Shown here piece after piece: positions 9,569-12,648 of a DNA stretch of 64,000 nucleotides. The position numbers were made by a program, and so were the translations under genes. How positions within the stretch are numbered: position 1 is the stretch's first letter; every line of letters begins with the position of its first letter. The notes beneath the pieces are model-generated. The model did not search any database and was not told the origin of the DNA. It saw only the letters and a program-made list of their open reading frames with translations. The DNA comes from Candidatus Heimdallarchaeota archaeon (lineage in GTDB: Archaea > Asgardarchaeota > Heimdallarchaeia > Heimdallarchaeales > Heimdallarchaeaceae), in assembly GCA_016840095.1 (NCBI GenBank), contig JAEOSZ010000031.1, forward strand, positions 1 through 64,000, written 5' to 3'.

Positions 9569-11296
9569 TTGAGAAACATGTCTATTATACCACCAGAAGC
9601 TTCATTCATTTTTGCATATATCGCACTTCTCTATAATGCTGGAGTATCACTCAAGCTAGTTTATAATTCATTATCGAACCCTCTCTATCATAGAAAGGCT
9701 TGGAATTTAACTTCAGGAGGGCTTATTTTAGTAGGAACGGTTTTGTTATTCTTCTGGTTTAATTTTTCACTTTCCGTAAGCTTTGTATGGGGTGGTTTAG
9801 TTGGCAGTTTGCTTCTTTTTGCTAACAATTTGATAGCAACAATCTTAGCTTTCAGGAATTCGATAGAGGTAACTAAATTTGGTAAAGCTAATTACATTTT
9901 CTTTACAGTTCTAGCTTTACAATCGGTTATGTTCTTTCTCAACTTCATTGATGCTCAAACAATTTTCCGTTTACCCGGGTTTCTAGAATGGTTGATGATT
10001 ATTCCAACTGTTGGTTATTCTGCATTCCAAGCATTTCTCTATGGACCTGTAGGTTATTTCTATCCTGCACTTATCTTAATTCCACTTGTAGCTCCAATTA
10101 AATTTATTAATTATCCAGAACCTGAACCAGAGCCAAAGAAAAAACCTTCAAAGAAATCAAAAGAGAGTGTATTCACAGAAGAAATAATAGAAAAACCAGA
10201 AGAAAAGAAACCATCTATGTGGAAATCACTCCTATCTTTCCTAGATAACGGATCAAAAGGAATATTCGCAGTTTTATTTATTCTGTTATTTGTATTTAGT
10301 TTACTGAACATTGGAACATTTACATCATTTAGTGATTTCAAGAGTGCAAAATATAATCCTGTTTATCCTGAAAGAAGTGATTTTGAATTTAGTGTCTCTT
10401 TGAAAACAATCTATCAACAGACTCTTCTTACGGATTATCAAGAACAATTTCAGGAAGAGTTAGCCATGATTACAGAACTAAATGTTTCAACAGTAAGAAT
10501 AGATGTTAAAGCTGAAATTGTTGAAAATAATCTTACTGAACTAGTGGATATCACGAATCAACTACACTCAAATGGTTTTAAGATCATGATGGCAACGTAT
10601 GGATACGGTTTTCCTACTTGGAGTTACCAAATGGTGAACTTAACAGATTTCATAGAAACTATGGAGCAACAGGCTGAAACACTTATTCTGAATTGTACTC
10701 CTGAATATTTACTAATTTATCCCGAACCGTTTGGTTTCTCTTCTGCATTTCTAGATGAAATACCTACTCCAGCTCAATGGGGTTCAACAATAAATGACAC
10801 AGTAACATATCTAAATACCTTAACAAATGATACAGAAATTGGTGTTAATCTTTCTTTCAATGATTTTGAGAAATATCCAAATTATGAAACCACAGTATTT
10901 GAAGAATTAATGGCAAACACTTCTCTTGATTTCCTTGGATTGGACTTCTATATTATACATGGTAGAGATCTTGAACTATCAACGTACCTAAATGGAGTTT
11001 CAACTTCAACTAAGGATATCTGGATTTGTGAATTTGGTGTATCAGCTGTGATGTACGGAGAAAGAATACAAGCAGCAGCTTTAGCAAGATTACTTGAGAT
11101 ATGCACTAATGATGTTTTAGCTGCAGGTAATAATACCCAGATCACTGGATTTCAAGGAACAATAAAGGGACTAAACTACTTCTCATTAATAGATGACTTA
11201 TCAACTGGAAATTCTTTAGGTTTAGTTGGGGAATCTGGTCACAAAAGGCTTTCATACTACAAATATCAAGAGATTATAGCAACGGTTTATGCTTAG
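9569..11296 (+). CDS. multi-TM protein fused to a clan GH-A-like glycoside hydrolase domain
   Basis: About 6 N-terminal TM segments, PEPEPEPKKK linker, TIM-barrel-like region with YPEP (putative acid/base) and WICEFG (putative nucleophile). Confidence 0.6.
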   Translation: MRNMSIIPPEASFIFAYIALLYNAGVSLKLVYNSLSNPLYHRKAWNLTSGGLILVGTVLLFFWFNFSLSVSFVWGGLVGSLLLFANNLIATILAFRNSIEVTKFGKANYIFFTVLALQSVMFFLNFIDAQTIFRLPGFLEWLMIIPTVGYSAFQAFLYGPVGYFYPALILIPLVAPIKFINYPEPEPEPKKKPSKKSKESVFTEEIIEKPEEKKPSMWKSLLSFLDNGSKGIFAVLFILLFVFSLLNIGTFTSFSDFKSAKYNPVYPERSDFEFSVSLKTIYQQTLLTDYQEQFQEELAMITELNVSTVRIDVKAEIVENNLTELVDITNQLHSNGFKIMMATYGYGFPTWSYQMVNLTDFIETMEQQAETLILNCTPEYLLIYPEPFGFSSAFLDEIPTPAQWGSTINDTVTYLNTLTNDTEIGVNLSFNDFEKYPNYETTVFEELMANTSLDFLGLDFYIIHGRDLELSTYLNGVSTSTKDIWICEFGVSAVMYGERIQAAALARLLEICTNDVLAAGNNTQITGFQGTIKGLNYFSLIDDLSTGNSLGLVGESGHKRLSYYKYQEIIATVYA

Positions 11297-11306
11297 AAGT
11301 AATGAA

Positions 11307-11375
11307 GAATCACCTCAGTCCGCCCATCAGCGATCACAATGTATCACACGACCGTTGTTTCCTCATTGATGATTC
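11307..11375 (-). ncRNA. box C/D guide sRNA; D guide predicts 16S rRNA Cm1402
   Basis: Minus strand: stem GAAUCAUC, C AUGAGGA (11366-11360), 12-nt guide AACAACGGUCGU, D' GUGA, C' GUGAUCG, 12-nt guide CUGAUGGGCGGA, D CUGA (11318-11315), stem GGUGAUUC; 8-bp terminal stem. Confidence 0.9.
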
Positions 11376-11421: not shown

Positions 11422-12648
11422 CTATATTGTCATTGCTTGTGCCATTGAGATATAACCTTCAACTTCACTTTTTGCAGTTCTTACGAATTCCAATAGTTGT
11501 TCTAAATTCCCTTCAGAAGCACTCATGTGAGTCTCTTCAAGTCTTTTCATTGCTTCTTCAAATTTAGCTAGAGCCTCTTTGAATTTCTCCTGATCAAATA
11601 ATGCAATTCCTTCTGTTTCAGATGCAAGTGCTTCATAAAATGAACGTTGAGCAGTCATGTTTTTGATTAGTGATTCACTCTTAATACTGGAAAGTAATCC
11701 TAAAGCAATATCTACTGATTCAACTGCTGCTTTAAACTTAGTACTTGCATCTATTGGATTATCTCTTCTTTTATAGAGTTCATTTGCTTCCGATTCAAGT
11801 TGACTCGCTTGAGTAATTCTAGATAGAGCTAAGTATAATCGCTGTTCCATAAAATTTGCACATATAACACTTGCTCGTGCATAATATCTTGAAGCTATTG
11901 CAAATAGTCTTAGGGCTTCATTGAAATTACTTATGGCAATATTTTGAGATCCTTGATCCCAAAACCATTCAGCTCTGCCTACAATATGTAACTTAGTTAT
12001 TTCATCAACCTTGTTTTGCAAATCTTCCATTTCATCATCCAAAGATTTAAACAGAAAATTCGCCTTCATCAATTCAGTTCTTGCATTTAAAAGATGTTTC
12101 TTAGACATTCTAGTGTTATCTGTTCTAGATTCTGATAACTTCAATTCATGAACATACTTGGCATAACTGATTCTAGCTTTTGAAACACTTAAATCAATTA
12201 TATTTTCATCATGTTTTCGATTTTCAGCAAATTCCTCAAAGAATCCAATTGCTTCTTTTGCTGCTTGGATTTGTTTTTCAGTTTCGCTTTCGAGATATGA
12301 TGAACAGATTCTAAACATTCCTTCAGAATAATTAATCCATTTGACCATTTCGTTGAAAATCTTATCTCCTTCTCTCCCTCTTGAAGCTCTAGCTCTTACA
12401 AGCAATTTCAAAGCTTCCTCATAATTCTTCTGAGCATCTTCTTTTTTATCCTTTCCGAACACTTCATCTCCTTTGACAACATAGAGCATTCCCGCATAGA
12501 AGTACGATAAAACTTTGAATGCAACGTTATCATCTCCAGCTTTCTTAAATTCATTATAGAGGTCGGAATATCCATTGTAAGATGATTTTAGATTGGAGTA
12601 GATAGGTTCATAATGTAGGAATTGAAATTCGAGACTCTTTGAACTCAA
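11422..12648 (-). CDS. alpha-solenoid (TPR/SNAP-like) protein
   Basis: Repeated A-x2-Y/F-x2-A helical pattern; TTG start after GGTG RBS. Confidence 0.65.
   Translation of the reverse strand: MSSKSLEFQFLHYEPIYSNLKSSYNGYSDLYNEFKKAGDDNVAFKVLSYFYAGMLYVVKGDEVFGKDKKEDAQKNYEEALKLLVRARASRGREGDKIFNEMVKWINYSEGMFRICSSYLESETEKQIQAAKEAIGFFEEFAENRKHDENIIDLSVSKARISYAKYVHELKLSESRTDNTRMSKKHLLNARTELMKANFLFKSLDDEMEDLQNKVDEITKLHIVGRAEWFWDQGSQNIAISNFNEALRLFAIASRYYARASVICANFMEQRLYLALSRITQASQLESEANELYKRRDNPIDASTKFKAAVESVDIALGLLSSIKSESLIKNMTAQRSFYEALASETEGIALFDQEKFKEALAKFEEAMKRLEETHMSASEGNLEQLLEFVRTAKSEVEGYISMAQAMTI

Follow-up and report, generated by a model that had tools for sequence, protein, structure and literature searches.

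The window analysed here, a stretch of DNA of 64,000 nucleotides, contains a short gap between two convergent open reading frames (ORFs) in which a first-pass annotation had placed an unannotated box C/D sRNA, at 11307-11375, with a proposed role in guiding 2'-O-methylation of C1402 in 16S rRNA. The question that this locus raises is whether a guide RNA is really encoded here and, if so, which rRNA positions its two guides would address. The gap is as it had been described, with an ORF on the plus strand ending at 11296 and an ORF on the minus strand ending at 11422. The latter, upstream of the sRNA gene and on the same strand, encodes 408 aa with weak TPR hits, and the sRNA gene lies 47 nt past its stop codon; the plus strand ORF facing the sRNA gene encodes 575 aa and has no Pfam hit.

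The box C/D sRNA gene occupies 75 nt of the minus strand, from 11378 to 11304, so the extent first proposed was slightly too narrow. The four boxes and the two 12-nt spacers that had been claimed are present on that strand. Read from the 5' end, the 5' strand of the terminal stem (11 nt, 11378-11368, pairing with 11314-11304) is separated by 1 linker base from box C (AUGAGGA, 11366-11360, a variant of RUGAUGA whose UGA core and last A are invariant in the orthologues described below). Box C is followed by the 12-nt D' guide AACAACGGUCGU (11359-11348), which has an invariant core and complementarity to 23S rRNA, and by box D' (GUGA, 11347-11344, a variant of CUGA whose GA is kept in all orthologues). 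After a D'-C' loop of 6 nt (11343-11338) come box C' (GUGAUCG, 11337-11331, a variant box whose UGA core is kept in most orthologues), the conserved 12-nt D guide CUGAUGGGCGGA (11330-11319), which pairs with both 16S and 23S rRNA, and box D (CUGA, 11318-11315, its GA invariant in the orthologues). The 3' strand of the terminal stem (11 nt, 11314-11304) is the complement of 11378-11368. The stem thus has 11 bp, where 8 bp had been described, including one G.U near the 5' end and one U.G near the boxes, and the minimum-free-energy fold closes it (z = -2.5 relative to shuffles).

Three of the four boxes depart from the consensus, namely box C (G for U at position 5), box D' (G for C at position 1) and box C' (CG for GA at positions 6-7). 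The C at position 6 of box C' is able to pair with the G at position 1 of box D', and degenerate D' and C' boxes are common in box C/D sRNAs. The presence of a TATA box belonging to the gene, another element of the first-pass annotation, holds up as well. The terminal stem is preceded at a distance of 22 nt by a TATA-like TTTAAA (11406-11401), which directly follows a BRE-like purine-rich CGAAACC (11413-11407), and most orthologues from two genera (g1 and g10) carry the motif GAAAAC(C/T)TTAAAC at the same upstream distance. The motif fits an archaeal BRE/TATA promoter, from which we infer its use as one. A scan for sigma-70 promoters and terminators was set aside as not applicable to archaea.

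Elements of this kind can be assembled by chance from a short sequence, and conservation was decisive in judging the sRNA to be real, since complementarity alone is weak evidence. BLAST retrieved 10 orthologues within the same genus. A covariance model built from the same-genus orthologues was then run on other genomes of the family and order, and it found a single-copy orthologue in 25 of 30 other family genomes, spread over 5 genera; 16 genomes of the order's three other families (f2-f4) gave no orthologue. The orthologues, 26 in number, are single-copy and syntenic across the 5 genera. In the resulting alignment of 26 sequences, the guides and boxes C and D are the most conserved segments, with majority fractions of 0.90 for box C, 0.91 for box D, 0.87 for the D' guide and 0.89 for the D guide; the linker scores 0.36 and the internal loop, the least conserved of the features delimited above, 0.46. 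The conservation of boxes C and D that had been expected in relatives was thus borne out by the covariance-model search. Position 5 of box C, where the window's sequence deviates from the consensus, varies freely among the orthologues (U, G, A, C), and position 1 of box D and position 6 of box C change together in one genus (U with A in L063). The D'-C' loop is longer in many relatives, in which it forms a small hairpin.

The terminal stem provides further support. Across the 26 orthologues, 98.2% of its cells are paired and 9 of the 10 modelled pairs show compensatory changes, a level of covariation that none of 500 shuffles matched. The 26-sequence alignment was fitted to the covariance model, which favours the structure; in the smaller orthologue set the stem is 100% paired. 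The locus thus combines C/D boxes, D'/C' boxes, 12-nt spacers, a covarying stem and complementarity to rRNA that is Watson-Crick at N+5 (the rRNA nucleotide facing the fifth guide base before box D or D'), and a genuine, conserved box C/D sRNA is confirmed.

One could still argue that the boxes are chance motifs or the remains of a decayed, non-functional gene. Three of the four are off consensus, as noted above, and a scan of the locus against Rfam returned no family at the gathering threshold, the top match being the Pyrococcus sR20 family (RF01140) at 22.5 bits and E = 0.011, below its gathering score of 44 bits. The 26 single-copy syntenic orthologues in 5 genera, with their invariant guide cores, covarying stem and conserved promoter motif, already contradict such a reading, and we consider it highly improbable. 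The locus was also rejected as a member of the sR20 family itself, as the match is sub-threshold and only the boxes and their spacing align, while the guides differ.

The genome holds two of the protein components that a guide RNA of this class would work with, fibrillarin (308.9 bits) and Nop5 (225.4 bits), whose genes are neighbours on contig C1. RsmI, whose absence had been proposed as a check, was not found: a search with the RsmI model gave no match in six genomes of the family, namely this one and five relatives, of which two are closed. This is consistent with RNA-guided methylation and is not proof of it. A full-length actin match of 447 bits in this genome agrees with the Asgard origin that had been thought probable, and the match, together with the long 23S rRNAs of the relatives, fits an Asgard archaeon. 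The profilin Pfam model, used as a further Asgard marker, had no match anywhere and was uninformative. The 23S sequences of the family run from about 3.37 kb to 4.14 kb (G046, L068; also L065-L067), against 2.99 kb for the archaeal model, which points to large expansion segments or introns.

A search with the RF02540 family reported no 23S rRNA in this genome. BLAST located a 624-nt 3' fragment of 23S at one contig end (G000 contig C3:1-624) that carries both of the 23S guide sites discussed below. The contig opens with this fragment, the terminal 624 nt of 23S, which holds a 158-nt insertion (C3:128-285) after GUGAGA, at about E. coli 2600. The insertion is also present in G013, a relative with 96.8% identity across the entire fragment, and missing from two others, G005 and G045. 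This probable rRNA intron follows the target of the D' guide at a distance of only a few bases. A separate stretch on the plus strand of another contig (G000 C122, about 140553-140620) reads ATGATGT, a 12-nt spacer, CTGA, a short loop, TGATGA, a second 12-nt spacer and TGAG, and resembles a further unannotated box C/D sRNA, whose guides are different.

With the sRNA established, we turn to its guides, of which the D' guide is the simpler. Its core CAACGGUC is the same in all 26 orthologues and, in the window's sequence, forms 9 contiguous Watson-Crick pairs with 23S GACCGUUGU (E. coli 2588-2596), within the segment GGGUUUAGACCGUUGUGAGA at the foot of helix 93 in the peptidyl-transferase centre. 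In relatives the guide forms 10-11 pairs with 23S, and the substitutions seen in orthologous guides (C to U opposite G2595, A to G opposite U2596) all keep wobble pairing. The target is invariant in seven 23S sequences of the family and is also present in this genome's own 23S fragment (C3:113-124). The first-pass annotation had suggested 16S at about 1059 as a weak target of this guide. That pairing amounts to 8 bp, 2 of them G.U, with no partner for the invariant 5' half of the guide, and we rejected it in favour of 23S 2588-2596. Among shuffled D' guides, 3.5% reach 9 Watson-Crick pairs in 16S plus 23S.

Given the 12-nt spacer of the window, the N+5 position of the D' guide falls on 23S C2590 (E. 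coli numbering) through a G-C pair; this nucleotide of the peptidyl-transferase centre is the one that the guide would mark for 2'-O-methylation. The spacer between box C and box D' is 11 nt in most relatives, as against 12 nt in the window, which shifts the predicted site to C2591; shifts of a target by one base through guide indels are known in Pyrobaculum (PMC6009581). The same position can be traced to eukaryotes. Yeast U2921 corresponds to E. coli U2552 (PMC11542601), and a gap-free count from there places yeast Am2946, Cm2948 and Cm2959 on A, C and C, respectively. By this count C2590 is therefore the equivalent of yeast Cm2959, which is the snR73 site (PMC5199042) and has Cm4536 as its human counterpart.

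The D guide presents a more difficult case, as it fits two sites. Its segment GAUGGGCG is kept in 25 of 26 orthologues. Because this genome's own 16S rRNA is absent from the assembly, pairing with 16S was scored on the 16S sequences of 11 relatives, which read GUACACACCGCCCGUCGUUGCAA and have G at 1408 in 11 of 11 cases. On these sequences the guide pairs with 16S 1399-1408 over 10 bp with its N+5 position on C1402 through a G-C pair, as had been claimed. Two G.U pairs are involved (G1405 and G1408), and not the single one described, because position 1408 is G in this family. The second site is 23S UUCGCCCAUUAA (E. coli 2554-2565), on the 3' strand of helix 92 beside the A loop. This genome's own copy contains it (C3:81-92), 32 nt upstream of the D' target, and there the guide forms 11 bp with 23S 2554-2564, again with 2 G.U and with N+5 on C2558 through a G-C pair.

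The two sites are themselves much alike. Between 16S 1399-1408 and 23S 2555-2564 there are four differences, all transitions, and the guide can also pair at C2558 because at each of the four it carries a G or a U, which pairs with both rRNAs. The computed duplex energies are -19.6 kcal/mol on 16S and -16.8 kcal/mol on 23S. Of shuffled D guides, 10% have an equal or better site in 16S plus 23S and 1.3% have two such sites. The proposal that C1402 is the target thus stands as a plausible pairing and loses its exclusivity; because 23S 2554-2564 fits the guide equally well, 16S C1402 would be one of two candidate targets.

Searches for other targets and other guides gave little. The tRNA search returned no convincing target, the best being 8 bp with 3 or more G.U, and no other box-plus-guide candidate for C1402, C2558 or C2590 was found in the 3.44 Mb assembly (89% complete). 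The remaining candidates in the genome for these sites were rejected, as they lie in apparent coding sequence and have no full box architecture. A pattern scan of genome contigs with both guide cores was too loose, and it produced chance hits in bacteria only. In family f3, the box-plus-guide pattern picked out two sRNAs with a related D guide and other D' guides. These complete-looking box C/D sRNAs (L218 in G040 and L219 in G037, about 1440-1525) have the D guide (A/G)UGAUGGGCGAA followed by CUGA; with A at positions 1-2 their D guides fit 23S better, and their D' guides are unrelated to that of the window. A related D guide thus appears to be used in different sRNA contexts.

Whether the D guide serves 16S C1402, by itself or together with 23S, we judge to be about evenly balanced. 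It is possible, if somewhat unlikely, that the sRNA is a linked double guide for 23S only, with D' on C2590 and D 32 nt away on C2558, in the 3' strand of helix 92; together, the guides would clamp the region of the A loop and helix 93 as the large subunit folds, and the 16S match would be a by-product of the similarity between the sites. The 11 bp formed with the genome's own 23S, as against 10 bp with 16S, speak for this arrangement, as does the fact that the two U residues of the guide that wobble on 16S G1405 and G1408 form Watson-Crick pairs with 23S A2561 and A2564. So does an insertion of 3 nt (AAC) in two relatives (G004 and G006), whose C'-to-D spacer is 15 nt; it extends the 23S match to 13 bp, with N+5 on U2555 in the A loop, and loses the 16S register. 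Two further relatives (G023 and G016) have, like the two f3 sRNAs, A at guide position 2, a Watson-Crick match to 23S U2555 and a mismatch to 16S C1399. The 23S site is also favoured by the dual rRNA guides of Pyrobaculum, 72% of which have targets within 100 nt of each other (PMC6009581).

Other orthologues point the opposite way. N+5 lies on C1402 in 23 of the 26, and guide positions 2 and 10 stay G in nearly all of them, Watson-Crick with 16S and wobble with 23S. The D guide of genus g12 (L063), UCGACAGGCGGG, has C at both wobble positions and so forms Watson-Crick pairs with G1405 and G1408; it has one A.C mismatch on 16S, and its 23S duplex energy drops to -8 kcal/mol, i.e., this orthologue gains fit to 16S and loses fit to 23S. 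The 23S of one relative (G041, L066) has A for U at E. coli 2555 in the helix 92 loop, in an otherwise invariant A loop (UUGUACGCCC), a difference that may be a real change or an assembly error. The G041 guide does not track this U2555A change, which again counts against a guide devoted to 23S.

Published guides from distant archaea bear on the same choice. Guide GUGAUGGGCGGA of Methanopyrus kandleri sR114 is one base (position 12) off the window's D guide and the same as the D guide of four relatives (G021 and G041-G043) (PMC4644070, Dennis et al. 2015, Additional file 1). Sulfolobus acidocaldarius Sac-sR122 carries the near-identical guide GCGAUGGGCGGC. At positions 11-12 each follows its own 16S at 1408-1409: the U and G of one form Watson-Crick pairs with Methanopyrus A1408 and C1409, and the C and G of the other face the G1408 and C1409 of Sulfolobus, a guide that mismatches the organism's own 23S. 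All three guides, i.e., these two and that of the window, place U opposite 16S G1405. The 2015 catalogue marks the sR114 and Sac-sR122 guides as 'NP', i.e., with no predicted target (PMC4644070), and our reading of the sequences printed in its supplement suggests C1402 as a possible assignment for both. Methanopyrus has a separate predicted guide, sR64, for 23S C2558 (alignment C2832; PMC4644070 supplement). This sRNA can be cited on either side, as it marks C2558 as a guide target in an archaeon, in line with a purely 23S role, and as it shows Methanopyrus keeping the sR114 guide beside a dedicated C2558 guide, which argues against such a role. In sR114 and Sac-sR122 the shared guide occupies the D' position and the partner guide is a different one, and the genes are therefore not orthologous as wholes.

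More doubtful still is the idea that the 12-nt D guide is deliberately bispecific, with a single sRNP methylating both C1402 at the P site and C2558 on the A loop side. If it were, the arrangement would be ancient, since nearly the same guide occurs in Methanopyrus, and individual lineages would have drifted towards one target, genus g12 towards 16S and G004 and G006 towards 23S.

The mechanism that we propose keeps 16S C1402 as the principal D-guide target. The 75-nt double-guide sRNA would be transcribed from its own promoter on the minus strand and would assemble with L7Ae, Nop5 and fibrillarin on the C/D kink-turn and the C'/D' kink-loop. Each 12-nt spacer would pair with rRNA, and fibrillarin would methylate the 2'-OH of the nucleotide at N+5. 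The D guide would most likely direct methylation of C1402 in the P site of the decoding centre; its second pairing, at C2558 on the A loop side and 32 nt away from where D' would act, is probably used too and appears to have taken over in the two relatives with the AAC insertion. Which of the sites receive the methyl group, and which of its two targets the D guide uses, we infer from pairing and its conservation.

A further possibility is that the sRNA acts mainly as a folding chaperone, with one or both guides holding nascent rRNA and no productive methylation, as has been proposed for guides with a mismatch at N+5. Pyrobaculum sR25 and Thermoproteus tenax sR35 are relevant here, as they are predicted to pair at the equivalent of C1402 (alignment C1389, flagged; C1368 in Pyrobaculum) (PMC4644070, PMC6009581), and the sR25 family has a conserved N+5 mismatch at that position (PMC6009581), so that pairing there need not mean methylation. 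Tolerance of register shifts or mismatches with complementarity kept, as seen in G004, G006 and genus g12, and the movement of the D' site by one base between clades would also suit a chaperone. The window's guide differs from the sR25 family in having a G-C pair at N+5 and U opposite G1405, where the sR25 family has C. More generally, N+5 and its neighbours are Watson-Crick at all three candidate sites in the window, both spacers have the optimal length of 12 nt, fibrillarin is present and other organisms carry methylation at these positions (PMC11542601, PMC5199042, PMC5389701). A role mainly as a chaperone accordingly seems to us quite unlikely.

Taken as a guide for methylation, the sRNA is a well-supported and family-wide addition to the Asgard non-coding RNAs, whose catalogue is still sparse, and it predicts ribose methylation at two or three central rRNA positions, namely C1402 in the P site, C2590 in the peptidyl-transferase centre and possibly C2558. 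Two published 'orphan' guides, the D' guides of Methanopyrus sR114 and Sulfolobus Sac-sR122, would thereby gain a suggested target, and archaeal Cm1402 a candidate type of guide. A guide with two possible targets would in addition be a small point on the evolution of guide RNAs. The kind of sRNA is already known, as near-same guides occur in Methanopyrus sR114 and Pyrobaculum sR30 and archaeal equivalents of Cm1402 have been published (PMC4644070, PMC6009581, PMC5389701, PMC11542601).

Among known systems, the closest relatives of the D' guide come from hyperthermophilic Thermoproteota and not from Asgard archaea. The D' guide of Pyrobaculum calidifontis sR30, AAAAACGGUCUG, shares AACGGUC with that of the window, and sR30 and Ignicoccus hospitalis sR27 are predicted to act at alignment position C2864, which is E. 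coli C2590 with an offset of 274 (PMC4644070 supplement). The D' guide of Sulfolobus Sac-sR105 is predicted at C2865 and flagged (PMC4644070). The hosts of these three sRNAs are all Thermoproteota, and the partner D guides, where they can be compared, differ from that of the window, the D guide of P. calidifontis sR30 being directed to C2606 and that of Sac-sR105 to A2565.

For the 16S site, 2'-O-methylation at the equivalent of C1402 is documented or predicted in all three domains. In bacteria it is made by RsmI, as in E. coli, and in eukaryotes it is represented by yeast Cm1639 with snR70, human Cm1703 and Arabidopsis Cm1645 with AtU43 (PMC11542601, PMC2794176). In archaea, Cm1369 of P. abyssi is listed as the equivalent of E. 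coli Cm1402 (PMC11542601), and Cm1402 was detected by RiboMeth-seq in Nanoarchaeum equitans, for which no sRNA candidate was found, with Ignicoccus sR11 as a candidate guide (PMC5389701).

The eukaryotic snoRNAs are the nearest functional comparison. Yeast snR70 and plant AtU43, and yeast snR73, use the same chemistry and the same N+5 rule, and the first two act at the position that the D guide addresses under the 16S reading, the third at that of the D' guide, so that eukaryotes have a separate snoRNA for each site. The earlier suggestion of an Asgard counterpart of snR70 and U43 therefore holds in a functional sense and under the 16S reading only. Homology between the genes cannot be shown, because a shared target forces the guides to be similar, and since the same guides occur in distant archaea the likeness would not be a special link between Asgard archaea and eukaryotes and has no bearing on the origin of eukaryotes. 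Bacterial RsmI (TIGR00096) places the same 2'-O-methyl group on 16S C1402 and differs in being a stand-alone protein enzyme that uses no guide RNA.
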